Below, one piece after another: positions 2,658 through 30,136 of a stretch of DNA of 32,000 nucleotides. The notes beneath the pieces were generated by a model. That model searched no databases and was not told where the DNA came from. It saw only the letters and a program-made list of their open reading frames with translations. Source of the DNA: Alkanindiges illinoisensis DSM 15370 (GTDB lineage Bacteria > Pseudomonadota > Gammaproteobacteria > Pseudomonadales > Moraxellaceae); the NCBI RefSeq assembly GCF_000619845.1, contig NZ_JHUX01000003.1, forward strand, positions 580,064-612,063, written 5' to 3'. Position numbers and translations under genes: made by a program. Position 1 is the first letter of the stretch, and each line of letters opens with the position of its first letter.

Positions 2658-3349
2658 CGTTTAATCCCCTGAATGCTGGCCGCACCATGTCCAGCCGTGA
2701 AATTGCGGAACTCACCCGCAAGGAACATGGCCATATGATGCGTGACATCAAGAGTGTGCTTACCCAGCTGGGCTTTAATGACAGCCAGTATATCCATTAC
2801 TGGATACACCCCCAGAATTACCAGCAGTACCCGGAATATCAGCTGGACCATCAACTGACCATGATTTTAATCACGGGTTACAGCGTGCCTTTACGTGCTG
2901 CCGTGATTAATCGCTGGTCTGAACTGGAACAGCGCAACTTGTTGCCTGACTTCACTGATCCGGCTGCCACTGCAATTGCGTGGGCAGAGCAGTATCGCCT
3001 GAAACAGCAGGCCGAGCAGCAAATTGCCCAACTGGTACCTAAGGCCGAGGCATTAGACCGTATTACCAATACGGCTGACCTGTTTGGCATTCGTGAAGCC
3101 TGTAATGCCCTGAAAATTTCCCAGACCCAGCTGACCACAATGCTTATTGAGTGTAAGTGGGCCTTTCGCACGCCTAAGGGTAAGTTGCAGGGCTATGCCA
3201 ACCGCACAAAGCAGGGCGTTCTAACCCATATCGTAACGCAGCCAAAGCCTGACAATCATGGTGTTGAGCATGTTTACCAGCAATTAAAGATTACTTCCAA
3301 GGGCATCACTGTGCTTGCCGAAATTTTGGAAAAGGAAGGCTCAAAATGA
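2639..3349 (+). CDS. Rha-family regulator / antirepressor with KilAC (ANT)-type C-terminal domain
   Basis: MSSREIAELTRKEHGHMMRDIKSVL matches the Phage_pRha signature (xEIAELxGKxHxxVxRDI). The C-terminal part (...AIAWAEQYRLKQQAEQQIAQLVPKAEALDRI...FGIREACNALKI...) resembles KilAC/ANT antirepressor domains. An internal ATG at 2687 (MSSREI...) may be the true start. Confidence 0.75.
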   Translation: MLMAAVAFNPLNAGRTMSSREIAELTRKEHGHMMRDIKSVLTQLGFNDSQYIHYWIHPQNYQQYPEYQLDHQLTMILITGYSVPLRAAVINRWSELEQRNLLPDFTDPAATAIAWAEQYRLKQQAEQQIAQLVPKAEALDRITNTADLFGIREACNALKISQTQLTTMLIECKWAFRTPKGKLQGYANRTKQGVLTHIVTQPKPDNHGVEHVYQQLKITSKGITVLAEILEKEGSK

Positions 3350-3666
3350 GTAAGTTTTATTGTTCTACCCATAACAAGTACAAAGCCATTCCGCGTCAGA
3401 AATACGAGGATGGCGACCGTGTTCAATACATTCTAAAAGGCCGTGGCGGTCATCCAGCAACAACCGCCAAAGGTAGTGTCCAGTTGGTACAGGGTAATCT
3501 GCTGCATGTGGCTACTGATAGCGGTAAAAACATCAAGCTGACCAATGAACTTGAGTCCGTTACACCGGCCTGGGCGCCATCACCACTGCAGTATTTTAAT
3601 CCCGGCAAATGCTGGTGTGACATTGTTGAAGAGGCTGAACCTGTTCAGCAGGACGGTGCAGCATGA
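3346..3666 (+). CDS. Hypothetical protein
   Basis: ATGA-coupled 106-aa ORF in the early gene chain. No motif recognised. Confidence 0.55.
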   Translation: MSKFYCSTHNKYKAIPRQKYEDGDRVQYILKGRGGHPATTAKGSVQLVQGNLLHVATDSGKNIKLTNELESVTPAWAPSPLQYFNPGKCWCDIVEEAEPVQQDGAA

Positions 3667-4589
3667 GCTTAACTAAAGGACGGATCAATCGCACAGGCAA
3701 AATCTACTTTCACGATGCATCAGTTATGGTTCGAGATGATGGGGGCTTGCCGCAAGAATGGGAAGCCCGTCAAGCATGGGATAAGACACTTAAAAAACAG
3801 GTTTTTTTACGCATTGTGCAACAGCTTAATCGCATGGGCTGGATCTGTACTGTCCCCCAAGAATATGTTGGTCAGTACAGTGATAGTTTTGCTCGCTTGC
3901 ACCGTAGCTGTGAAAAAGGGGAGTTAAAAGGCGAGTTAAAAATCTTTGGTAATACTGTTGAATTTGAAATGTGGCAGGACATTATTACGCCTACACGCGA
4001 AGACCGTAAAGGCCGTTACGAGTTTAACAAAGAAAAAATTATGCCTTATATGCTCCGGCTGGAAATGGAGCGTACCCGTCAAAGGATTACTAGATATCTG
4101 ACTAATATCTTTACGGGATATGTGGTTGAGGGTAAGCGAACCGTTGAACGTGGGCCTCAATTACATGCTGTCTCGGTATTAGACTGGATTAAATTTGAAT
4201 ATCAACAAGGATGGGACTACGACAGTAAATTAGGCCGTCCTTGCGGTGAAGAGCGTTGCGGCAATAATAGAAGTGCGGATGAAAGCACCATCAAGCATGG
4301 TGAACGTGTCTGGTTCTATGACCGCAAAGGTCGTTTAAATACCGGTATTGCTTACTACAACATTAATAATATGTGGTGGGTAGTTACTGGAAAATATGAT
4401 GTCTGCAATGAAGCCAGTTTCCACTTGTATACCAGTTTACCTGATCATCCCCGGAAAAAGCATAACCAGAAATTAGCCAAAAGCCGCTTAAAACAAGAGC
4501 TGGATAAGGCAGTTGCAGTCATGAATTTTGAGCGGGCTATCAAGCTGCGTAATGTCCTTTACCCAAATGGTGTAGAGGCTGCAGCATGA
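3663..4589 (+). CDS. Hypothetical protein with C-terminal UVR-like (UvrB/UvrC-type) helical motif
   Basis: ATGA-coupled 308-aa ORF. The C-terminus LKQELDKAVAVMNFERAIKLRNVL resembles the UVR motif (L..L..A....FE.AA.LRD.I). Confidence 0.6.
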   Translation: MSLTKGRINRTGKIYFHDASVMVRDDGGLPQEWEARQAWDKTLKKQVFLRIVQQLNRMGWICTVPQEYVGQYSDSFARLHRSCEKGELKGELKIFGNTVEFEMWQDIITPTREDRKGRYEFNKEKIMPYMLRLEMERTRQRITRYLTNIFTGYVVEGKRTVERGPQLHAVSVLDWIKFEYQQGWDYDSKLGRPCGEERCGNNRSADESTIKHGERVWFYDRKGRLNTGIAYYNINNMWWVVTGKYDVCNEASFHLYTSLPDHPRKKHNQKLAKSRLKQELDKAVAVMNFERAIKLRNVLYPNGVEAAA

Positions 4590-4813
4590 TTTTCCAATCA
4601 CCTAAACCAAGTTTGAAAACTATTGAATCTGAATTTATTGAACGTGTCTGTGAAACCTGCGGTTGGTTATTTGTTTCCATTATTACGGGATTTGGTGCTG
4701 AAAAGATTAGAGATTTTAGTATTGGCCGCCGCAAGCCACGGCCAATAGATATGAGAAAGTTTATTGATGCCTTGGGTAAGTTCAACCAGCTAACGAAAGT
4801 GAGGTCGAAATGA
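4586..4813 (+). CDS. Hypothetical protein
   Basis: ATGA-coupled 75-aa ORF. No motif recognised. Confidence 0.5.
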   Translation: MIFQSPKPSLKTIESEFIERVCETCGWLFVSIITGFGAEKIRDFSIGRRKPRPIDMRKFIDALGKFNQLTKVRSK

Positions 4814-4992
4814 GTTCACTGATTCGCTGTGTTGGGCATCGCCACGGGCCTAAATTTAATCATGAGTTATTTCATGGCTGTGCTCGTTGTAAGCACCTTG
4901 ATACTAATGGCAAACCAGCCCCGCCTTTAAGTCAATGGATAGGCGTTTGCCCGACTCTACATCCTTACAAGAAAGGGGGTAGCCAATGCTGA
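4810..4992 (+). CDS. Hypothetical small Cys/His-rich protein
   Basis: ATGA-coupled 60-aa ORF. CVGHRH...HGCARCKH...C suggests metal binding. Confidence 0.45.
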   Translation: MSSLIRCVGHRHGPKFNHELFHGCARCKHLDTNGKPAPPLSQWIGVCPTLHPYKKGGSQC

Positions 4993-7775: not shown

Positions 7776-8011
7776 TGGCCGGAGCGACCGCAGCAGTAGA
7801 GCTTATTGAATTTGATTGTAGTGCTTTTGGCCCTGAGCAAGTCACTGTAACGCTGCCCATAGTAAATATTAACCCTTATGACAATGTTTCTGATGATTGC
7901 ACCATCACAGTTGGGGGCGTTGAGCTGGTGATGGATATCAGTACTGCTTTGGAAATGACCTATCGCCTGTGTGATGCATTAGAAATTGAATATCTGGAGC
8001 CAAAAGAATGA
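7775..8011 (+). CDS. Hypothetical protein
   Basis: TAATG-coupled 78-aa acidic ORF. Confidence 0.5.
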   Translation: MAGATAAVELIEFDCSAFGPEQVTVTLPIVNINPYDNVSDDCTITVGGVELVMDISTALEMTYRLCDALEIEYLEPKE

Positions 8012-8853
8012 ATACCATTGAAAGTATTATTAGCATGATCGAATCAGAAGCAAAAGAAGCCATTCGCACTACTGGCGAAAATTACATACCGCCATTTAAA
8101 ACCAAAGATGAAGGGCTACAGGCGTTAGAAAAGGCAAAGTTATCAATAGGTCCACCATTAGAGTGGCCTGCCGACTGGCCAACAGATGCGCATTTTTACC
8201 GTATAAATATCAATACACCCATTTTCTATAAATATCAGCACGGCCAGATCAAACGCTGGGTTAAATACGCAAAGTGCTGGGTAGATTCCTGTATTCCTGA
8301 CTGGGCTGCGTTCTGTGAGCAAAATGGAGTAAAGAGTTTAATAAAATGGCCTTCTATTGCCGAAATGCTGTCAGTACGTGGTCTACGCAATGACGCGGAT
8401 TACATGACGCTCATTCATGGTGAATGGCCTGCATGTGATGCTAAAGAAAAGGATGAAAGTATTAAGCATGGAACAGAAACGGCTTACAGATATGGATGCC
8501 GTTGCGAGATATGTATAAATGCCCACAATCAGCAAACAATAAATTTTCAAAAAAAGGCCAGGAACCATTTTGCTGAAACAGGTGAATTTCTATCTACCAA
8601 AACTAAGCACGGTACTTATAGTTCGTATGTAAACTACGGCTGCCGCTGTGAGCTTTGCACCGAGGCTAACCGTAAACAGAATAAAAAAACTCTAAATAAG
8701 ATAAGAACGGGCTATAGCAAGACAGGCCGTTTTCCTAAGGCTGATCAGCATGGCACCAAGTACGGCTACTCAATAGGTTGTCGCTGTGAAGCTTGTTCTA
8801 AAGCTTATGCTGACTATCAAAAAAAACGTAGAGCGACAAAGAAAAATGGCTAA
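8008..8853 (+). CDS. Hypothetical protein with three tandem HGT-x3-Y-x2-GCRC-x2-C modules
   Basis: The C-terminal half contains KHGTETAYRYGCRCEICINAHNQ, KHGTYSSYVNYGCRCELCTEANRK and QHGTKYGYSIGCRCEACSKAYADY, each followed by a Lys/Arg-rich tail. ATGA-coupled start. Confidence 0.65.
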   Translation: MNTIESIISMIESEAKEAIRTTGENYIPPFKTKDEGLQALEKAKLSIGPPLEWPADWPTDAHFYRININTPIFYKYQHGQIKRWVKYAKCWVDSCIPDWAAFCEQNGVKSLIKWPSIAEMLSVRGLRNDADYMTLIHGEWPACDAKEKDESIKHGTETAYRYGCRCEICINAHNQQTINFQKKARNHFAETGEFLSTKTKHGTYSSYVNYGCRCELCTEANRKQNKKTLNKIRTGYSKTGRFPKADQHGTKYGYSIGCRCEACSKAYADYQKKRRATKKNG

Positions 8854-8862
8854 TTTTTATAA

Positions 8863-8882
8863 TGGAACCAACCAGAATGGCT
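8863..8882 (+). promoter_or_regulatory. Conserved intergenic motif, copy 1 (TGGAACCAACCAGAATGGCT)
   Basis: Starts 10 nt after the stop at 8853 and about 75 nt before the next gene. Shares TGGAACC-N2-CC with seven other intergenic copies. Confidence 0.35.
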
Positions 8883-8939
8883 CGCCAAAACATCCGTTAT
8901 ACATCAAAGCTGACACAAATCTAATTAAGTGGAACTTTG

Positions 8940-9641
8940 ATGAAAAATAATCGTGCGCGTCGTGACTGGACAAATTTTTTTAATACGGGGAAAAATTCAA
9001 AGGCACCAATGGTTGACTGGGATACTAAAAAAACCCAGCGACCAGCCCGCGAAAAGCGTGCATTGGAACCACGTAAAACCATTCCAACCTTTAGACGGGC
9101 AACCCTGCTTACTGAAAAACAGGGTGATGACATTGTGCATAAAGCCAATACCGGTGCACAAATGATTATTGGGGATGGCTTTGTGACTGTGAAGTTGCCG
9201 TATGGCATCAGTGCCAATGATATCTGGCGTGCCACGCTCACTGAAGAGGGTAAGCAGCGTAACAGCCTGTCACTGGGTGCCAAACACTATAAGCAGGACG
9301 TCAACAGCATGTATGCCCCGTTATTGCGGGCGCTGGACTGGAAAGCCATATCAAGGCCCTGTGAGATCAGGCTTATTGTGCAGCCACCAGCTAAAACCCG
9401 TAACTACAGCGCTGCGTCTTATCCCCGCTTTGATATCGATAACTATCCAAAGCTATTGATTGATGCACTGAAAGGAATAGACCTGCTTTATAAGGATGAC
9501 AATTTATTTGTGAGTGAAAAAATTGAACTGGCAGAACCCATTGAAGGGGGTTGTGTCTGGCTGTCATGTGTCTTTATTGAACAAACCAACTGGCTGAAAA
9601 AACCAGTGGACTTTGAATGGTTGGCAGGGAGAGTCGCATAA
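8940..9641 (+). CDS. rusA: RusA-family Holliday-junction resolvase with a basic N-terminal extension
   Basis: The C-terminal 159 aa (from MIIGDGFVTVKLPYGISANDIW...) carries the RusA core ...RFDIDNYPKLLIDALKGIDLLYKDDNLFV... (D-x-DN...K...DAL...DD). The track ORF starts at TTG 8937 and the first ATG is 8940. A RusA-sized product would start at ATG 9162, which has no obvious SD. Confidence 0.75.
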   Translation: MKNNRARRDWTNFFNTGKNSKAPMVDWDTKKTQRPAREKRALEPRKTIPTFRRATLLTEKQGDDIVHKANTGAQMIIGDGFVTVKLPYGISANDIWRATLTEEGKQRNSLSLGAKHYKQDVNSMYAPLLRALDWKAISRPCEIRLIVQPPAKTRNYSAASYPRFDIDNYPKLLIDALKGIDLLYKDDNLFVSEKIELAEPIEGGCVWLSCVFIEQTNWLKKPVDFEWLAGRVA

Positions 9642-9643
9642 TT

Positions 9644-10354
9644 ATGGCAAAGAAATTTGATGTACAACGTAGGCTGATGATCGGGCGTAAGTTTGCTTTA
9701 GCCCGTGATATGGCTGGCCTCAAGCAAGAAGAGGTGATGGTTAAAATCTTTGGGGCCAGTGGTGGACAAAAGAACCGGATCAGTGAGATCGAAAACGGTA
9801 AGACCATGCCTGATGCAGAGTTGTTTCAGGTGTTGTGTGAGCTTTATGTGGTATCTGCCGACTGGATTCTGGGTTTTACCGTAGAGCCGGAAATGGATAA
9901 AACCACGGCAACCGCTGGTATTTTATATAATAGTTTAGGAGATATGCTGACCGAATTTACTCAAGCTGCTACGGCACAAATCACAATGGCCTGCGCACGT
10001 CATATTACCTCGTTTCCCAAGGCTGACTCTGTAGTCTTACTGGAACAGGCCAAAGTACTGGTAAAAGCCTGTGGTAGTCTTAGTAGAGAGGCTTATGAAC
10101 AGATTCAGCCTGCATTAATCGGTGTCATGGAAAGTATTCGTAATTGTGACCAGAAAAATGCATTACAAATACGAAATCTGGAAATAGCCCTTGATGACGT
10201 GTACCAGCGTGAGGAAGCGGAACTACATCAAAAAATGCTGATGGATTTGGTGCTTAACCGTACTAAACGATATCCATCCACATCATTACCCAAGGCTGAT
10301 GAACCCGAAGTGCCTCAAATTGGTTTAGATTTATTTGCTGAAGAGAAGGCATAG
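9644..10354 (+). CDS. XRE-family HTH transcriptional regulator (late-regulator position)
   Basis: I place the start at ATG 9644 (MAKKFDVQRRLMIGRKFALARDMAGLKQEEV...ISEIENGKTMPDAELFQVLCELY), a typical XRE HTH. GGGAGAG lies upstream. It follows rusA, where lambdoid phages carry their late regulator. Confidence 0.7.
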   Translation: MAKKFDVQRRLMIGRKFALARDMAGLKQEEVMVKIFGASGGQKNRISEIENGKTMPDAELFQVLCELYVVSADWILGFTVEPEMDKTTATAGILYNSLGDMLTEFTQAATAQITMACARHITSFPKADSVVLLEQAKVLVKACGSLSREAYEQIQPALIGVMESIRNCDQKNALQIRNLEIALDDVYQREEAELHQKMLMDLVLNRTKRYPSTSLPKADEPEVPQIGLDLFAEEKA

Positions 10355-11234: not shown

Positions 11235-11261
11235 TTGATTTAAAATAAGACAATGTATAGT
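11235..11261 (+). promoter_or_regulatory. Candidate sigma70-type promoter for the AT-rich membrane-protein gene
   Basis: TTGATT (11235-11240), then a 15-nt spacer (short), then TATAGT (11256-11261). Confidence 0.3.
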
Positions 11262-11272
11262 GTTTTATCTTT

Positions 11273-11280
11273 GGGGGGGG
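11273..11280 (+). repeat. Homopolymeric G8 tract immediately upstream of ATG 11287
   Basis: Read directly as ttGGGGGGGGaatccgATG. It doubles as the only SD-like element for the gene. Confidence 0.9.
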
Positions 11281-11286
11281 AATCCG

Positions 11287-12051
11287 ATGTTCAAAGATAA
11301 AACACTGGCTGAAAATGTAAGCGCTCTTTTAATAATTTATATCGTAATTTTAGGCTTAAGCTATTGCCTGTATTTTGCACTAGTTAAAGTTGGAATGCCT
11401 ACAGATGATTTTGTTGATATATCCGTTTGTGCATCTACATTGCTGGGGCCAATCATCTTACTATTCACTTTGACCGCATGGAAAGAACAGCATAATAAAT
11501 CGGTTTTAAAAGATATATCATTTGAAGGCATTAAAGACTTACTCACCATTAAAAATAGCCTAGACCTAATAAGACTTGCCAAAGATAGAATCTTTATTAC
11601 CCATGGCATTGAAGGCATTTTTCATCAGGATATTGAATTAATTTATCAAAACCATATTAAAGCTCAATCTGCCTCGTTGGATTTTCAATCAAAAATAGAA
11701 ATTTTTAAAATCTATAATATTTTTGATAAAGATATTAAGGACTTTGATTTGTTAATCAATGAATGCTTAATGGAGATTGAAGTGTTAATAATGGATATAA
11801 ATGCTTTGAATGCAACCTATGCCGAAAAAAAAGCTATGATTCATAAATATGAATCTCGATATAATCTTTTAACAACACGGGAGTTAACGTATCTGGATGT
11901 GTTAAAAGAGGATATCCAAAACTATGAAGGTACAGACATTGATGACCAGATTGAAAATTATCGAAATAATAAGTTTGAGGATGGTTTAAGTGAACTAAAA
12001 GATGTGATTGATGGATATATTCAACTTATTTCCAAGGTCACTGTGGCCTAA
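11287..12051 (+). CDS. Hypothetical 2-TM membrane protein with a helical cytoplasmic domain (accessory/moron gene)
   Basis: ATG 11287 is preferred over the track GTG at 11260. Two hydrophobic helices (LLIIYIVILGLSYCLYFALV and CASTLLGPIILLFTLTAW) precede a long K/E/D/I/N-rich helical region. The gene is very AT-rich compared with its neighbours. Confidence 0.65.
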   Translation: MFKDKTLAENVSALLIIYIVILGLSYCLYFALVKVGMPTDDFVDISVCASTLLGPIILLFTLTAWKEQHNKSVLKDISFEGIKDLLTIKNSLDLIRLAKDRIFITHGIEGIFHQDIELIYQNHIKAQSASLDFQSKIEIFKIYNIFDKDIKDFDLLINECLMEIEVLIMDINALNATYAEKKAMIHKYESRYNLLTTRELTYLDVLKEDIQNYEGTDIDDQIENYRNNKFEDGLSELKDVIDGYIQLISKVTVA

Positions 12052-12054
12052 TCC

Positions 12055-12753
12055 CTACCACTCATACTGGCCATTATCGAGCTTGTGAAAAATTTCCTGT
12101 GTGTTGATAAAGGCTACTTGTGAGGGATGGCAATTATTGACCTTTGCAGCCTGTATCGCCAGATTCATTGTGGTGTTATAGGCGTTGCTATGTTGTTTTA
12201 AGTCATCCAGCATTTTGGGAATGTATTCAAGCCGGTTGTCAGTTTTCTCAATGTATCTGCCAGTAACCTGGTAGATATGGGAAATTAGATAATCAGGGGT
12301 AAAGCGCGGTGTTTCGTCCAGCCAGTCCACAGCGGCGTCATACACTGTTTCTGATTGGGTAGCCAGTTCATTCACCAGCATCTGACAAAGTGACCGCATC
12401 ATCCAGCCGGATTCATTTTTTCTAAAATTATAATCCTCACAATAACAATAAATGATGTGTAGCTGACTAATAAACAGTGGAAACAGAATATCCACGGCAT
12501 AGGTAATTTTCTCAATCATGACAGTGCTGTTTTCAACCACGGGCTGCTGTTTTTTATAGACAATCCGTTTACCTTGGGCGGCCTGCTGCACTTCATAGAC
12601 TAAGCCCCATCCAAACGCGATATCAGGACTATCTTTGCCATTGTTATTTTCAGGTAGGATATCGTATGCAGCATCACATAATGCCATTAGCTCATCACTG
12701 GTGCCGGAAACCCGAACGCCTAAGTTATTTGGGGTCAATGAAAGCAACAGCAT
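12055..12753 (-). CDS. Hypothetical protein; the only complete - strand gene in the window (accessory/moron gene)
   Basis: 232-aa ORF with a strong reverse-strand GAGGA RBS 7 nt before its ATG. It converges on gene 11287-12051 with only 3 nt between the stop codons. No family recognised. Confidence 0.7.
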   Translation of the reverse strand: MLLLSLTPNNLGVRVSGTSDELMALCDAAYDILPENNNGKDSPDIAFGWGLVYEVQQAAQGKRIVYKKQQPVVENSTVMIEKITYAVDILFPLFISQLHIIYCYCEDYNFRKNESGWMMRSLCQMLVNELATQSETVYDAAVDWLDETPRFTPDYLISHIYQVTGRYIEKTDNRLEYIPKMLDDLKQHSNAYNTTMNLAIQAAKVNNCHPSQVAFINTQEIFHKLDNGQYEW

Positions 12754-17394: not shown

Positions 17395-17424
17395 AGGGAC
17401 TCTTTCATAGAGTCCTTTTTATTT
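17395..17424 (+). terminator. Rho-independent terminator-like hairpin
   Basis: GGACTCT-TTCAT-AGAGTCC (7-bp stem, extendable by 2 bp), followed by TTTTTATTT. Confidence 0.6.
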
Positions 17425-17858: not shown

Positions 17859-17885
17859 AAGGGTTCATTGAAGGACCCTTTTTTT
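17859..17885 (+). terminator. Rho-independent terminator-like hairpin
   Basis: AAGGGTTC-ATTGAA-GGACCCTT (8-bp stem with one G-U pair) running into a T7 tract. Confidence 0.65.
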
Positions 17886-18052: not shown

Positions 18053-18082
18053 AAGCCCTAATGAGATATTGGGGCTTTTTTT
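18053..18082 (+). terminator. Strong hairpin plus T7 tract ending exactly at the start codon of gene 18083
   Basis: AAGCCCTAAT-GAGAT-ATTGGGGCTT (10-bp stem with one G-U pair), then TTTTTTT (18076-18082) and ATG at 18083. The only SD-like GGGG lies in the 3' arm. Confidence 0.55.
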
Positions 18083-20358: not shown

Positions 20359-22350
20359 ATGGCGTTAAAACCCCTAAAAGACATACCTGAATGGTGGGAG
20401 CTGTGTGTACGCTACCGCTATGACATTTATGCTTTCGCGGTTGAGGCGCTGGGCATTACGCCCACATGGCAACAAGAACTACTATTTGAATCTGTCCAGT
20501 TTGATGGTAGCCGTACATCGGTTGCGTCAGGTCACGGCTGTTTTGGTAAAGGCACCAAAATCCGGCTGTTTAACGGCAAATGGAAGCGCGTTGAAAAAAT
20601 AACAATAGATGATCAGATCATGGGTAGCGATGGGATATCGCCCCGTGAGATCACCCATGTTGTGCGCGGCCAGCAGGAACTGTACCGCTTTAATTATGCC
20701 AATGGCGTCAGTCACGTTTATAACCGGTCACATATTTTGTGCCTGGTGTCGCTAGAAACAAAGAACGGCTGGAAAGCTGGCGACAAAATGGAAGTGCTAG
20801 TGTCCAAATGGCTCACATGGCCGGAAGATACCAAGCGCCAGTTTGCGGCCTACCAACTCAAGCATAAAAAATATCAGCCTGTTGCCATCACCAGTGCCAC
20901 GGCCTTAGGCGTAGGGGATTACTACGGCTTCGTGCTGGACGGTGACGCCACGTTTCTAGGCGCTGATGGCATGCTGCTACACAACACCGGTAAAACCGCC
21001 AGTGCGGGCATTGTGGCGCTCTGGCACCTACTGTTCTTTGATGAATCCATCATGATGTTTACTGCCCCGCAAATCGGGCAGCTGAAAAAACAAGTCTGGA
21101 AAGAAATCAGTATCAACCTGAGCCGCCTTAAAAGCGGCCCTTTGGCATGGCTGGCAGAATATGTCGGCTATCAGACTGAAATGGTCTACGTTAAAGGCTA
21201 TAAGGAAAAATGGCACGTCTTTGCCAAAACCGCACCGAAGCACCAGCCAACCAACTTGGCGGGGAACCATGGCGATAACTACATGGTGTGGGGTGATGAG
21301 GCCAGCGGTATTCCAGATGAAGTCTGGGACGTGGTACTGGGTGCATTAACGCATGCCGACAACCGGGCGGTGATGACATCACAGCCGACCCGTAACGCTG
21401 GCATGTTCTATGAAACACACCATGGCTTAAGTCACCGCTCAGACGGTATATGGATGGCGCTGACCTTTAATGGTGAAGAGTCGCCGCTTGTATCTGAGCA
21501 ATCCCTTGAAGAGCAGCGCCAGAAATACGGCAGCCGTGATGATGCCCAGTACAAAATTCGTGTGCTCGGTGAATTTCCTGATTTAGCCGATGAATTTTTG
21601 ATTACCAAGCGTATGTCAGAAGATATGTACGTTGGTAGCTCAATTTTTGAAGAGATTCACCAGTTTGGCTATGTGATTACCGTAGACGTCGGCGGCGGCG
21701 TGGGTCGGGATGATTCGGTTATTTGTGTGGGCAAGGTCTGGGGTGAAGATCAGTGGGGCGAGCGGGCAAGGCGGGTTGAAGTTGAAAAAATCCCGCTGTG
21801 TAAAAACAAGGACAATATTACTGAACTGTTTGGCATTATTAGTGAGCTGCTGGAAAATTATTCCAATGCTTTACTTGTGGTCGATGATAACGGCGCAGGT
21901 AAGGGTCTTGGCCAGTTGTTGCAACAGCATGGCATCTATTATTTGCCTGTGTATTGGGGCGGTGGCTGCTTTAACGAGGATAACCGCAAAGAGTATTACA
22001 ACAAGCGGGCGCTGGCCTATGTGTGCCTAAAACGTGCCATTGAGCATGGCCGATTCAAGATTAAAACCAACAAGTACAAAGTAAAGCTGCAAAACCAGAT
22101 TATTAAAATTCCCTATGGCTTTGATGAGCATTCACGCTACAAGCTGCTGGGTAAGGATGAAATGAAGCGTAAGGGTATCAAGTCGCCGGATATGGGCGAC
22201 GCGCTGGCGTTTTTCTTTCTTGAGAATGTGCATTACACCGAAGCGTACGAGAAAGCCGCGCTGGATGTGGATACACCAGAAGGACAGGAACAGGCCGCTA
22301 AAGCATCACGTTTTGAGCGATTAAGGCAGGCCGCACAAGAGCAATTATAA
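20359..22350 (+). CDS. terL: Terminase large subunit, interrupted by a mini-intein in the Walker A loop
   Basis: The exteins read ...SVASGHG/TGKTASAGIVALW..., which restores the Walker A GHGTGKT. Walker B is YMVWGDEASGI. The C-terminal part is nuclease-like (VITVDVGGGVGRDDSV...). Confidence 0.9.
   Translation: MALKPLKDIPEWWELCVRYRYDIYAFAVEALGITPTWQQELLFESVQFDGSRTSVASGHGCFGKGTKIRLFNGKWKRVEKITIDDQIMGSDGISPREITHVVRGQQELYRFNYANGVSHVYNRSHILCLVSLETKNGWKAGDKMEVLVSKWLTWPEDTKRQFAAYQLKHKKYQPVAITSATALGVGDYYGFVLDGDATFLGADGMLLHNTGKTASAGIVALWHLLFFDESIMMFTAPQIGQLKKQVWKEISINLSRLKSGPLAWLAEYVGYQTEMVYVKGYKEKWHVFAKTAPKHQPTNLAGNHGDNYMVWGDEASGIPDEVWDVVLGALTHADNRAVMTSQPTRNAGMFYETHHGLSHRSDGIWMALTFNGEESPLVSEQSLEEQRQKYGSRDDAQYKIRVLGEFPDLADEFLITKRMSEDMYVGSSIFEEIHQFGYVITVDVGGGVGRDDSVICVGKVWGEDQWGERARRVEVEKIPLCKNKDNITELFGIISELLENYSNALLVVDDNGAGKGLGQLLQQHGIYYLPVYWGGGCFNEDNRKEYYNKRALAYVCLKRAIEHGRFKIKTNKYKVKLQNQIIKIPYGFDEHSRYKLLGKDEMKRKGIKSPDMGDALAFFFLENVHYTEAYEKAALDVDTPEGQEQAAKASRFERLRQAAQEQL
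20539..20985 (+). mobile_element. 149-aa mini-intein (Hint domain, no homing-endonuclease domain) inside terL
   Basis: Starts at Cys61 (TGT 20539-20541) with block A CFGKGTKIRLFNG. Ends ...DYYGFVLDGDATFLGADGMLLHN (blocks F/G, Asn209 = 20983-20985), followed by Thr as the +1 nucleophile. Confidence 0.85.
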
Positions 22351-22386
22351 AAATATCCAATATGTAATTATAAATTTTAACATTAA

Positions 22387-22415
22387 TTTACAATCAATCA
22401 GATTTTAAGGTAAAT
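22387..22415 (+). promoter_or_regulatory. Candidate sigma70-type promoter for the TIR/Macro island
   Basis: TTTACA (22387-22392), 17-nt spacer, GTAAAT (22410-22415), in the AT-rich gap after the terL stop. Confidence 0.35.
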
Positions 22416-22432
22416 TGGTCTATAAATCTTTA

Positions 22433-23008
22433 ATGGACATAAGTATGGAATATGGACTGAGAACCCACAACTATTGTGCGTTTTATGTGGCTGAACCTTT
22501 TAACCCTTGCGCGTTAGGGGCATTCGCTACACATGATTTCTGTCATTATCAGATGTTAAAAGCATGGAAAGGAAAGGATACCACTTTCCCCTTCAGCGAT
22601 GCTCATGCTGCAACATATAGTGTGCGAGATAGTAGTGATTGGGAATCTACGCTCAAGCCTAGACTACGAAACAGACTACGCTTATCTAAAAATATTATCT
22701 TATTTTTGAGTGACTTTACTGGTAATTCAAGAGCTTTAAGAGAAGAGATTGACTATGGAATAAATACTCTAGGTCTACCCGTTATCATAATTTATCCTGA
22801 ATTTGATAATATTGATAAAATTGTTGATAAGAATAATACTTTTAGATTAGCTGTGAAAAACTTATGGGCAAAATTACCAATTCTTAGAGATTCAATGCAT
22901 AAAGTACCAACATTACATTTACCTATGAAGAAAGAAACTATTAAAGATGGATTAAGTAATAGAATGTTTATGATTAACTCTAAAGGCTCACCTGCAAAAT
23001 ATATTTAA
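22433..23008 (+). CDS. thsB: TIR-like (DUF1863/ThsB-like) protein
   Basis: ...YCAFYVAEPFNP...FPFSDAHAATYSVRDSSDWESTLKPRLRNRLRLSKNIILFLSDFTGNSRALREEIDYGINTLGLPVIIIYPEF... follows the ThsB/DUF1863 pattern (beta-strand start, RD.S.WE..LK, SK..I.L.S..T..S....EI with a conserved Glu, then ..PVI). The track ORF starts at TTG 22415; ATGs at 22433 and 22445 are alternative starts. Very AT-rich. Confidence 0.6.
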   Translation: MDISMEYGLRTHNYCAFYVAEPFNPCALGAFATHDFCHYQMLKAWKGKDTTFPFSDAHAATYSVRDSSDWESTLKPRLRNRLRLSKNIILFLSDFTGNSRALREEIDYGINTLGLPVIIIYPEFDNIDKIVDKNNTFRLAVKNLWAKLPILRDSMHKVPTLHLPMKKETIKDGLSNRMFMINSKGSPAKYI

Positions 23009-23019
23009 GAAGTTCACTT

Positions 23020-23859
23020 ATGGAAAATAAAGTTAAATTTTACGATAAAAAATTAATTGACGAGTTTTTGGTAAGAATTAGTACGATAAGTACGATTTTA
23101 TCCTTGGTGCTTATATTTATTTCAATTCCTGAGCAAATTAAAATTGCTTTTGGTGGAATATTTATTTTAGTTTTAATATTTATATATCAAAGAAGCTGGA
23201 GGGAAGCTAATGCTTTAAAAGATATTACTGTAAAAATTGATGAAAGTGATGTTAATATTAAAGTTGGTGATCTATTTAAAGAACCTGATTATAAAGTTAT
23301 AAGTTTTAATGAATATTTTGATACAGTAGTTGATGAGGTCTTAGTTAATGAGAGGTCTATTAATGGTATCTTTCTTAAAGAACATATAAGAATATCAATA
23401 GATGAATTAGATAATAAAATCAAAAATTATCCATTTGAGCAAAACGAAATAATTGGTAGTAATCAAAACCGTCCTTATGGAAAGAAAACTAAATATAAAA
23501 TCGGAACGATATTTGTTTTTGAGGATTATATTTTAACCGCTTTTTCAAAGTTTGATGAGCATAATAGAGCTTACCTAACGATGCCTGAATACCTTGAATT
23601 TTTAATAAATTTCTGGGATAAGGTTAATAAGGTATATGCACAAAAAAGTGTATCAGTACCTATATTTGGTTCTGGTATTACACGAATTAAGGAACATAAA
23701 AACATAAGTGATGAGGAATTACTTAAGATTATGATCTGGACTTTTAAAATTAGTGAAATGCGCTTTAAGTATCCTGCTAAGTTGTCCATAATTATTCATA
23801 ATGCAAAAATTAATCAAATTAATTTATTGGAAATCAAAAACACTGCAAATAGTCTTTAG
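23020..23859 (+). CDS. thsA: 2-TM protein with C-terminal Macro-like domain (type II ThsA-like effector)
   Basis: Two N-terminal TM helices (ISTISTILSLVLIFISI and IAFGGIFILVLIFIY). They are followed by NIKVGDLFKEPDYKVISFNEYFDT...SINGIF... and ...VSVPIFGSGITRI..., which parallel the Macro-domain motifs (GDIt..vDaIVNaaN...; ia.PligtGi.g). Starts 11 nt after the TIR-like gene. Confidence 0.5.
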   Translation: MENKVKFYDKKLIDEFLVRISTISTILSLVLIFISIPEQIKIAFGGIFILVLIFIYQRSWREANALKDITVKIDESDVNIKVGDLFKEPDYKVISFNEYFDTVVDEVLVNERSINGIFLKEHIRISIDELDNKIKNYPFEQNEIIGSNQNRPYGKKTKYKIGTIFVFEDYILTAFSKFDEHNRAYLTMPEYLEFLINFWDKVNKVYAQKSVSVPIFGSGITRIKEHKNISDEELLKIMIWTFKISEMRFKYPAKLSIIIHNAKINQINLLEIKNTANSL

Positions 23860-23875
23860 ATTTAATTATTACTTA

Positions 23876-23895
23876 TGGAACCTGCCTAAATCCTT
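23876..23895 (+). promoter_or_regulatory. Conserved intergenic motif, copy 6 (TGGAACCTGCCTAAATCCTT)
   Basis: Lies at the right edge of the AT-rich island, 67 nt before the tail-fibre ATG at 23943. Confidence 0.35.
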
Positions 23896-23942
23896 GTGTT
23901 TGGGTGGTTCTATCATTGCCATAGTGAATAAATGGGTGAGCT

Positions 23943-25274
23943 ATGGCAATTCTTCAATTCTACTTAACCGATGTTGGCCGTAATGCTGGAATTGATGCAG
24001 AAAATCTTGACCTGCATGTATCATTGAGCCATATCGCGGTCGGTTCAGCTAAATACAATGGGGCAACCGCTGCCAATACAAAAACCGCCCTGACCAACGA
24101 ATTGGCCCGTTATCCCTTAAATGGTGGTGGCGTTGATGCCACATCCCATACCTTACGTTTTGTTGTCAATATTGAAGCAACGATTACTGCCGATATCTTT
24201 GAGGTGGGTTTATATACCAATACTGGTGTGTTGTTTGCGGTTGCTGCTGTAACCGGCAATAGTCCATTGATTCAGCTGGTCACTAATATCGTGACCATCG
24301 TCACCATCGGCCTGACATTTGTAGATGTGGATTTTAGCAACATCCAGATCATGATTGACCCGAATACCCCTGTTGCTATTGCTCTGATGAATCAGCATCT
24401 GGCCCATCAAAACCCTCATCCCCAGTATGCCAAAAAGCTGGATTTTGATAATCATGTTGCTCAAAACGCATTTGAGCATAACAACCTTACCGCATTGATC
24501 GCAGCAGAGGCACAAGCGCGTGCTAATGCTGATGCAGCTGAAGCCCAGGCGCGTGGCAATGCGGATAATGCATTAGAAGATGATATTTATGCATTATCAG
24601 TATCGACGGAAAATGCACTTGAGCAAGAACGACAAATTCGCGCGACTGCAATTCAAAATGAAATCAATGAGCGTGCAGCGGCAGTTTGGGAAGCAATTCG
24701 GCAGCAAAGTGTTTTTATCGCAAAATATCTGAACAATACTGAGCCGTATCTGACAAGTGAAGGTTCAGCATCAGGTACTTTTAACCATAATGTGATTGGC
24801 TATGAACTCTCTCTCGGAAGCTGTTTAAATAACCCCTATATCAATGTGGTTAACCCTTCACCCAACTACAATGTTGGGGGTATCACATTTGGCAATAACA
24901 ATAATAAAACCGGCTTTATGCTCAAGCTCAGTGGGTTCATTCAGTTTGGGTGCTTTGCAGAACAAGGTGATACCAGCTGGTCGGGATTAAGTGTTGCATT
25001 AAGTTTCTATGATGAACACAACAATCTTCTTGCTGAAGTACCTTTAAATCTGGCTCAAGTCGCAGGCGGCTGGCCAAATAACTCTAATGTTGGCCACACG
25101 ACATACCGCTTCGACAATGGATATGACCTTTATTCATTATTTAAGCCAAACGGTTTTACACCGAATGATTTAAGACTTGCCTTAAGAGTTGCGGTATCTG
25201 TTAATTCGGATGGTGGTAGCCCGGCGCGTTCCATTTTAACCGTTGAAAAATTTGCGGTACGGTGCGTGCAATGA
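23943..25274 (+). CDS. Tail fibre protein (DUF3751/tail-collar-type N-terminus)
   Basis: N-terminus MAILQFYLTDVGRNAGIDAENLDLHVSLSHIAVGSAKYNG...LTNELARYPL...IFEVGLYTNTGVLFAVAA is the classic tail-fibre N-terminal domain pattern. An internal tandem AEAQARANADA/AEAQARGNADN coiled repeat is present. GGGTGAG RBS. Confidence 0.75.
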   Translation: MAILQFYLTDVGRNAGIDAENLDLHVSLSHIAVGSAKYNGATAANTKTALTNELARYPLNGGGVDATSHTLRFVVNIEATITADIFEVGLYTNTGVLFAVAAVTGNSPLIQLVTNIVTIVTIGLTFVDVDFSNIQIMIDPNTPVAIALMNQHLAHQNPHPQYAKKLDFDNHVAQNAFEHNNLTALIAAEAQARANADAAEAQARGNADNALEDDIYALSVSTENALEQERQIRATAIQNEINERAAAVWEAIRQQSVFIAKYLNNTEPYLTSEGSASGTFNHNVIGYELSLGSCLNNPYINVVNPSPNYNVGGITFGNNNNKTGFMLKLSGFIQFGCFAEQGDTSWSGLSVALSFYDEHNNLLAEVPLNLAQVAGGWPNNSNVGHTTYRFDNGYDLYSLFKPNGFTPNDLRLALRVAVSVNSDGGSPARSILTVEKFAVRCVQ

Positions 25275-29689: not shown

Positions 29690-29709
29690 TGGAACCTGCT
29701 GCCTGAGCA
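29690..29709 (+). promoter_or_regulatory. Conserved intergenic motif, copy 7 (TGGAACCTGCTGCCTGAGCA)
   Basis: 69 nt before ATG 29759. Keeps TGGAACC-N2-C but lacks TTTAGC. Confidence 0.3.
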
Positions 29710-30116: not shown

Positions 30117-30136
30117 TGGAACCAGCCTCATTTAGC
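30117..30136 (+). promoter_or_regulatory. Conserved intergenic motif, copy 8 (TGGAACCAGCCTCATTTAGC)
   Basis: Full-consensus copy 15 nt after the terminator and 86 nt before the capsid ATG at 30203. Confidence 0.45.

Follow-up and report, generated by a model that had tools for sequence, protein, structure and literature searches.

In this study, we examined an AT-rich, two-gene island that lies between the large terminase gene terL and a tail-fiber gene in a 32,000-nt stretch of DNA (the window). The island very probably represents an intact, horizontally acquired type II Thoeris cassette, thsB-thsA, carried as a moron in a temperate prophage resembling the Acinetobacter phage vB_AbaM_ABMM1 (ABMM1), and it would act through histidine-ADP-ribose (His-ADPR) and the membrane, a mechanism that we infer from homologues. 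Type II Thoeris, as defined by Sabonis et al., consists of a TIR protein, ThsB, encoded beside ThsA, a protein with two transmembrane helices and a Macro domain (2TM-Macro). The initial annotation of this DNA had proposed this identity, and it is borne out by matches to both profiles, by the architecture, by conserved residues and by the adjacency of the genes. What we observed directly is the domain identity of both proteins, how they are built, that their catalytic and ligand-binding residues are conserved, where the island is inserted and that related phages do not have it; the E-values of 1e-22 to 1e-117 exclude chance for the gene identifications. A 1.78-Mb contig of Alkanindiges illinoisensis (Moraxellaceae) carries annotated proteins identical to both ThsA and ThsB, and we take the prophage to be integrated in that species. 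The island comprises the following features.

22351-23875, + strand: AT-rich inserted island (moron) with the Thoeris cassette, delimited by guanine plus cytosine (G+C) content, absence from related junctions and sharp boundaries
22387-22416, + strand: candidate sigma-70-like promoter, TTTACA, 17-18-nt spacer, GTAAAT/TAAATT, matching 9 of 12 consensus positions
22445-23008, + strand: thsB, predicted TIR-like sensor and signal synthase of 187 aa, identified from Pfam, PADLOC, the Protein Data Bank (PDB) and AlphaFold2/Foldseek
23020-23859, + strand: thsA, effector of 279 aa, in which two transmembrane helices at the N-terminus precede a ThsA-type Macro domain (residues 78-260) at the C-terminus

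Identity of ThsA and ThsB

The Pfam family ThsA_Macro (PF20016) matched ThsA at 7.2e-64 over 183 of 183 profile positions, and the PADLOC ThsA model at 1.8e-117 over positions 2-277 of 278. Among proteins of known structure, ThsA aligned with the crystal structures of PcThsA (8V6S; 2.4e-91) and of EcThsA from Escherichia coli CFT073 (8V6Q/8V6R; 3.4e-90 to 8V6Q), and with 8R66, the signal-bound Macro domain from Bacillus amyloliquefaciens (3.2e-48). AlphaFold2 models of ThsA and ThsB, built from homologue alignments, had mean predicted local distance difference test (pLDDT) values of 82-83. The AlphaFold and Foldseek comparison of gene 2 that the initial annotation had proposed was positive: the modelled Macro domain superposed on EcThsA (8V6R) with a TM-score of 0.95 and a root-mean-square deviation of 1.6 Å, and on the B. 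amyloliquefaciens Macro domain (8R66) with a TM-score of 0.90, generic macrodomains (macroH2A, PARP14, OiMacroD) ranking far lower. Structurally, residues 1-64 form two long helices (10-33 and 38-64) with hydrophobic cores at approximately 19-36 and 41-56, and Kyte-Doolittle means over 19 residues exceed 1.6 across residues 24-51. Hydropathy and model thus agree with the two N-terminal transmembrane helices first read from the translation, as do profile and fold with its Macro-like C-terminal domain. Neither a SIR2 nor a SLOG domain was found in ThsA, for which Pfam returned only ThsA_Macro and a sub-threshold EF-hand. The fallback reading offered earlier, an undescribed TIR-associated membrane effector pair, is excluded, as gene 2 carries a ThsA-type Macro domain.

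EcThsA contacts ADP-ribose (ADPR) through D83, L113, N114, S175, S217, G218, T220, H259 and K262 (PMC11204291), and one of its loops is stabilized by D100/N96/R150/K154 (Shi et al., PMC11204291). At an offset of +1, the equivalents in the window protein are D84, I114, N115, S176, S218, G219, T221, H260 and K263, with D101/N97/R151/K155 for the loop. The contacts of Bacillus ThsA to His-ADPR, namely D100, N133, Q135, S194, R240 and Y277 (Sabonis et al., bioRxiv 10.1101/2024.01.03.573942), align with D84, N115, I117, S176, R222 and H260. The sequence of 9UUZ, rebuilt from its alignment with ThsA, reproduces exactly the residue numbering of Sabonis et al., so that 9UUZ is the B. amyloliquefaciens ThsA protein of that work; 9UV0 is presumably its partner ThsB. 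Across 26 aligned ThsA homologues, which are 57-65% identical to the window protein, residues N97, D101, N115, G116, R151, S218, G219, T221, R222, H260 and K263 are invariant.

Gene 1 had been read as a TIR-like ThsB, in agreement with its matches to Pfam ThsB_TIR (PF08937; 1.4e-22, the cut-off of this family being 21.2 bits), to the PADLOC ThsB model (2e-66, over nearly the full profile) and to PDB entry 9UV0, deposited as 'cyclic ADP-D-ribose synthase ThsB' (3.7e-71, 60% identity). A further structure, 3HYN, matched at 3.9e-69 with 58% identity; in contrast to these values of about 1e-70, EcThsB2 matched at 9e-08 only. A search with defense-system models had been suggested at the outset, and PADLOC recognized both genes; its best models are named 'ThsA1/ThsB1', a numbering of PADLOC itself that does not refer to types I and II. 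Neither ThsB nor ThsA matched NCBIfam or PHROGs significantly, and these libraries are therefore without models for them. The AlphaFold2 model of ThsB (pLDDT 82.7) superposed on 3HYN with a TM-score of 0.87, and its further Foldseek matches, all weak, were to ThsB, TIR and DNPH1/NDT folds. We place the start of thsB at ATG 22445 because the NCBI record of the identical public protein has 187 aa and about 120 homologues have 184-188 aa; a TTG start at 22415 (197 aa) is disfavored by the same homologue lengths and record.

Across 30 ThsB homologues, Y14, W41-K42, H54, R61-D62, W66-E67, E100 and E101 are invariant, and hence both Glu residues of the REEID motif, in which a candidate catalytic Glu had been suspected, are conserved. 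E101 aligns with the Glu in the HEID motif of EcThsB2, which has been described as catalytic (Shi et al., PMC11204291), and W41 lines up with the WxxxE Trp of E. coli ThsB2, a residue whose mutation abolishes defense. An active-site Tyr was found by Shi et al. (PMC11204291) only in the ThsBs of TM-Macro systems, and the invariant Y14 (NYCAFYVAEPF), judged by sequence pattern, is probably this residue. All peptide motifs quoted in the initial annotation occur in the translations.

The island and its place in the prophage

Measured over exact intervals, the G+C content of the island is 0.285, against 0.493 in terL, 0.439 in the fiber gene and 0.453-0.461 in the remaining window; the cassette thus has the base composition, distinct from that of the surrounding phage genome (0.45-0.49), by which a moron is recognized. 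In 200-nt windows, G+C falls from about 0.49 in terL to 0.31 immediately past the terL stop TAA (22348-22350), and lies at 0.24-0.30 between about 22700 and 23900 before returning to 0.45. The 5′ half of thsB (22400-22700) is richer, at about 39-42%, and the 25% plateau is reached only from about 22700. Both composition changes had been noticed before: the drop does begin at the first base after TAA, and the usual level does return at 23876, where the conserved motif TGGAAC stands. The left edge of the island is therefore the terL stop codon and the right edge this motif. Within these edges, the listing of open reading frames (ORFs) gives two co-oriented ORFs on the same strand with an 11-nt spacer between them, as close together as had been claimed. 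A search of the island ends for terminal direct or inverted repeats, of the kind left by a transposon or target-site duplication, gave none, only short AT-rich chance matches, and no recombinase accompanies the cassette. The flanking features are given below.

20359-22350, + strand: terL, large terminase gene, left flank, its product 73% identical to ABMM1 TerL and 31% to P1 PacB
23876-23942, + strand: fiber-gene leader with TGGAAC(C), CCATAG and a GGGTGAG Shine-Dalgarno sequence in a hairpin, the same elements as in the spacer of relatives
23943-25274, + strand: tail-collar fiber gene, right flank, matching Pfam Phage_tail_fib at 6.6e-08 and syntenic with the ABMM1 fiber gene

The genes around the island are consistent with the temperate-phage setting that had been assumed. 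Proteins of the window carry Cro-like, CII (CP76), Rha and ANT antirepressor domains, all related to the control of lysogeny; the Cro-like protein, at 363-638, belongs to a lysis-lysogeny region at the left end (363-1178 and neighbors), and the CII (CP76), Rha and ANT domains are found in ORFs after it. Other prophage genes in the window encode primosomal and DnaC-like replication proteins and tail, baseplate and fiber proteins. ABMM1, whose TerL shares the 73% amino acid identity given above, is a temperate Acinetobacter myovirus that has a tyrosine integrase and lysogenizes its host, and 72 nt separate its terL from the tail-collar fiber gene behind it. When 20359-25274 was compared with phages by megablast, the ABMM1 terL was the sole match. 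Lying between terL and the fiber gene in a co-oriented late block, the cassette occupies the position inside the late operon that the initial annotation had given it.

To place the insertion, we compared 87 related loci, comprising 80 IMG/VR contigs and 7 Acinetobacter genomes. In approximately 80 of the 87, terL and the fiber gene are 79-122 nt apart. The island is missing from the same terL-fiber junction in all 87, and no homologue of ThsA or ThsB is encoded within 6-8 kb in any of them. The short spacer of the relatives consists of the terL stop, a few nt, TGGAAC, about 40 nt, CCATAG and GGGTGAnCT-ATG. In the window, the island begins right at the terL stop and ends right before the TGGAAC at 23876, with the fiber leader wholly kept downstream. 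Exact ends and an intact leader therefore indicate that about 1,525 nt were inserted precisely and that this is not a divergent spacer, and as the junctions of relatives are empty of Thoeris (0 of 87), the cassette is a precisely placed moron.

Distribution of related cassettes

In a collection of 5.8 billion proteins, the nearest ThsA was 65% and the nearest ThsB 70% identical, both from Acinetobacter baumannii, where the cassette forms a chromosomal islet beside the paa operon in thsB-thsA order. The islet shares with the window its gene order and a very low G+C content (0.277, compared with 0.285), whereas it differs in that its thsA is followed by a hairpin terminator and in that a third TIR gene, CAP12-PCTIR_TIR, lies there in convergent orientation. 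Further, its thsB and thsA overlap by 4 nt and do not lie in a prophage, in contrast to the 11-nt spacer and prophage location found here. Cassettes of about 70% nucleotide similarity are present on 75 plasmids, mostly conjugative enterobacterial ones, with two from Acinetobacter. The island had no megablast match in E. coli genomes. Wherever we examined the cassette, its G+C content was 13-22 points lower than that of its flanks. Among 50,697 deposited phage records, ThsB occurs in none and a ThsA homologue in one, which is metagenomic; in IMG/VR, a ThsA homologue is found on 35 of 2.9 million contigs, about 7 of them with a ThsB of the same clade directly adjacent. Type II Thoeris thus appears rare in sequenced phages. 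One of the Acinetobacter plasmid copies, at 2977-4979 of the mobilizable A. haemolyticus plasmid NZ_CP031992.1 (L132), is a thsB-thsA cassette whose thsA is truncated by IS17 and which adjoins a RelE/ParE toxin-antitoxin pair.

Proposed mechanism and alternatives

By analogy with homologues, thsBA would be expressed in the lysogen, probably from the sigma-70-like promoter, with read-through from terL contributing during late transcription. ThsB would recognize a structural component of another infecting phage, upon which its TIR site (E100/E101, with Y14 and W41 nearby) would convert NAD+ and histidine into His-ADPR. This signal would be bound by the Macro pocket of ThsA (D84, N115, S176, S218-G219-T221, R222, H260, K263), and ligand-bound ThsA would form higher-order oligomers in which the N-terminal transmembrane hairpins cluster. 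The clustered hairpins would then compromise the membrane or arrest growth, such that infection is aborted before progeny release. The prophage would benefit because the host population is protected from competing phages. Several steps have precedents in other type II systems. His-ADPR is made by those of Bacillus (bioRxiv 10.1101/2024.01.03.573942) and Pseudomonas (recent preprint); the Macro domain binds ligand and forms higher-order oligomers (PMC11204291); and deletion of the transmembrane helices of ThsA abolishes defense in E. coli.

Some observations weigh against this account, in respect of the signal, the end point and expression. In the ligand pocket, the residue making a water-mediated adenine contact in Bacillus (Q135) is replaced by Ile (Leu in EcThsA), and the Bacillus stacking Tyr (Y277) is His, as it is in EcThsA. 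Tyr-containing ThsB active sites have been found to resemble deoxynucleoside-processing enzymes (Shi et al., PMC11204291), and the substrate of ThsB in this clade is therefore subject to some doubt. One E. coli type II system led to growth arrest with no NAD depletion or cell-death markers, from which it follows that membrane-disrupting abortive infection is not a universal end point. On induction, the prophage would have to avoid triggering its own cassette. As to expression, the AT-rich region contains 9 promoter-like matches where 10.6 are expected from shuffles. Further, we found no terminator after thsA, whose stop is 16 nt from the conserved fiber leader, and the cassette may be co-transcribed with the late genes rather than expressed independently. 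After induction such co-transcription is probable, because terL, thsBA and the fiber gene follow one another without a separating terminator.

The doubt about the substrate bears on the possibility that this is a genuine TM-Macro Thoeris with a signal other than His-ADPR, such as one resembling imidazole adenine dinucleotide (IAD) or a deoxy-derived ADPR conjugate, which we judge to be unlikely. Such a signal would be in keeping with the crystallization of the EcThsA and PcThsA Macro domains (62-63% identical to ours) with ADPR and IAD, with the likeness of Tyr-containing ThsB sites to deoxyribosyl-processing enzymes, Y14 being invariant here, and with the DNPH1/NDT folds among the weak Foldseek matches of ThsB. 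However, ThsB is 60% identical to 9UV0, which was deposited with 9UUZ of the His-ADPR-making B. amyloliquefaciens system, and R222, the counterpart of the Bacillus Arg that contacts the carboxylate of histidine (R240), is invariant. That the Pseudomonas type II system likewise makes His-ADPR also argues for this signal over the others.

The initial annotation had further credited the island with a candidate sigma-70 promoter of its own. A consensus match does sit at 22387-22416, 29 nt upstream of the thsB ATG and within the 94-nt spacer that precedes thsB, but the count of such matches does not exceed that in shuffles. In an alignment with seven related cassettes, including the A. baumannii copy, no convincing conserved promoter was seen upstream of thsB. 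The match is plausibly placed but is not evidence of promoter activity; as a sigma-70-like site, it would plausibly start a transcript near 22422, upstream of ATG 22445 and downstream of the rejected TTG. No Rfam family matched in the window.

Promoter matches that do not rise above chance would suit a cassette that is silent or non-functional, a recent passenger without phenotype in a possibly defective prophage. So would the fact that only 32 kb of the prophage are in view, and the IS17-disrupted copy on an Acinetobacter plasmid, which shows that such cassettes decay. We nevertheless hold this to be quite unlikely. Measured against the PADLOC profiles, neither ORF is truncated, no frameshift or internal stop interrupts them, and every invariant catalytic and ligand-binding residue is kept. 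Moreover, the architecture is fully preserved although the nearest relatives are only 62-70% identical, and this points therefore to long-term purifying selection.

A different explanation starts from the Pseudomonas type II Thoeris, which is activated by a folded side tail fiber together with its chaperone (recent preprint; one case studied). The position of the present cassette next to the prophage's own fiber gene may be coincidental. The prophage could conversely have co-evolved a 'self-blind' pair of fiber and ThsB, that is, a kin-exclusion device in the structural operon that would tell its own virion proteins from those of related competitors; to this idea we assign a similarly small probability. 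Very unlikely, finally, is expression mainly with the late operon in the service of the phage's own lytic cycle rather than of lysogen immunity, where the cassette might exclude co-infecting phages late or permeabilize the membrane: the co-oriented late block without a terminator on either side of the cassette, the fiber-gene leader preserved directly downstream and the abutting fiber gene, given activation by tail fiber and chaperone in the one system studied, would allow it, but the cassette has a sigma-70-like element in place of the TGGAAC motif found ahead of other late units and other junction inserts, no Thoeris with a lysis function is known, and self-activation would reduce the phage's own burst. 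Defense of the lysogen by His-ADPR signaling thus remains our preferred reading.

Neighboring features of the window

The terL-fiber junction is occupied in only 6 of the 87 relatives, in five of these six by terL-like paralogues and not by recognized defense genes. The paralogues (L003, 8068-9435; L086, 10067-10831; L009, 8095-8874, equal to L084, 10095-10874) are AT-rich and highly divergent, one being full length (455 aa), one an N-terminal and one a C-terminal half, and each insert has its own TGGAAC copy upstream. The copies that include the N-terminal region, L003 and L086, are probably ATPase-dead, because the Walker A lysine is missing from their sequences (YGWGCNDS/YGWGCDEA vs SGHGTGKT). 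As a group, these paralogues could be recombination relics or interference proteins. In L008, the junction holds a 977-nt AT-rich insert (7981-8957; G+C 0.31) with a 156-aa minus-strand ORF.

Copies of the motif TGGAAC(C)NNCC are found on the + strand of the window at 8863, 16462, 17354, 17818, 18012, 23876, 29690 and 30117, in intergenic sequence save for that at 29690, which is inside a listed ORF. They stand mostly 2-17 nt past the upstream stop (56 nt at 30117) and typically 67-83 nt ahead of the next start, with 14 matches counted against 5.4 expected. In several, ATTTAGC stands about 10 nt downstream, and hairpins resembling intrinsic terminators come after some of them (17395-17420, 17860-17885 and 18053-18080). 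All relatives keep the motif at the terL-fiber junction. Its appearance is that of a phage-specific promoter or regulatory site, and its GGAAC resembles -35 boxes of the extracytoplasmic function (ECF) type. At 23876, TGGAAC is the 5′ arm of a hairpin, but the other seven copies, when folded, gave no support for such a role in general.

In the fiber-gene leader, a perfect 10-bp hairpin (23915-23924/23941-23950; ATTGCCATAG / CTATGGCAAT) places the Shine-Dalgarno sequence GGGTGAG in its loop, with the start codon paired in its stem. Among 14 relatives, the paired share of cells is 87%, compared with 26-42% in slid controls, and two pairs are compensatory; these values come from explicit pair counting, as RNAalifold missed the hairpin owing to alignment gaps. 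For the 90-nt leader, the folding energy is -32.5 kcal/mol (z = -5.2). This hairpin may control translation of the fiber gene.

Upstream of the island, TerL contains a 149-aa mini-intein in its Walker A motif (residues 61-209; window 20539-20985), with the junctions …SGHG|C61FGKG…LLHN209|TGKTAS… and a match to Pfam Hom_end_hint over residues 61-173. In three relatives (L078, L087 and L088), terL lacks the intein and encodes 511 aa, the difference being a clean indel at C61-N209, and the alignment of P1 PacB to TerL is split into two pieces around the intein.

A second AT-rich islet lies at 11260-12753 (G+C about 0.35) and holds two convergent ORFs. That at 11260-12051 (+ strand, 263 aa) had no match in Pfam, PHROGs or PADLOC, and that at 12055-12753 (- strand, 232 aa), the only sizeable minus-strand gene, matched Pfam DUF6904 at 2e-17. 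This islet may be another moron. Between these regions and the left end, a helix-turn-helix protein is encoded at 9617-10354 and a RusA-like resolvase at 8937-9641. An anti-Thoeris domain of the Tad2/DUF2829 type was found in none of 26 further window proteins and others scanned with Pfam, a scan that covered short ORFs in part.

Comparison with known systems

The locus provides a well-delimited natural type II Thoeris within the structural gene block of a temperate Moraxellaceae myovirus. With an exact insertion point and many insert-free relatives, it offers a clean system for studying how a prophage tolerates its own abortive-infection module on induction. The same applies to cargo-shaped competition among Acinetobacter-type phages, which is relevant to phage therapy of that group. 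The understanding of how Thoeris works is left unchanged by it.

Of the characterized systems, the type II Thoeris of B. amyloliquefaciens Y2 (8R66, 9UUZ/9UV0) shares the two-gene layout, the single ThsB and the 2TM-Macro ThsA. Its ThsB is about 60% identical (9UV0) and its Macro domain 42% identical (TM-score 0.90); of its His-ADPR contacts, the D, N, S and R are kept, while Q135 has become Ile and Y277 His. It lies in a chromosomal defense island, unlike the window cassette, which sits in a prophage late block of a gammaproteobacterial host. The Macro domains of E. coli CFT073/ATCC 25922 ThsA and of PcThsA (8V6Q/R/S/T; Shi et al. 2024; Englert et al. 2026) are closer, at 62-63% identity and TM-scores of 0.94-0.95, with the ADPR-contact positions of EcThsA retained at the +1 offset and a 2TM N-terminus common to both. 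In contrast to the window, which has one ThsB of a different clade, the E. coli loci have two ThsB genes (ThsB1, with an extra domain, and ThsB2).

With type I Thoeris, the cassette shares the logic of a TIR sensor that makes an NAD-derived signal activating ThsA. The type I effector is, however, a SIR2-SLOG ThsA that responds to glycocyclic ADPR (gcADPR) by NAD+ depletion, whereas the window protein has no SIR2 or SLOG domain and is a membrane effector predicted to use another signal. In its setting, the cassette resembles prophage defense morons and hotspots, such as the P2/P4 hotspots and lambda-type late-operon morons, which are likewise compact, compositionally foreign and placed between core genes. 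As in such hotspots, the junction is variable among relatives, a few of which hold other cargo. To our knowledge, no description of a hotspot exists for the terL-fiber junction of ABMM1-like Moraxellaceae prophages. The cassette brings no new variant or mechanism; it is a new, clearly delimited example of a known defense family in a known setting.

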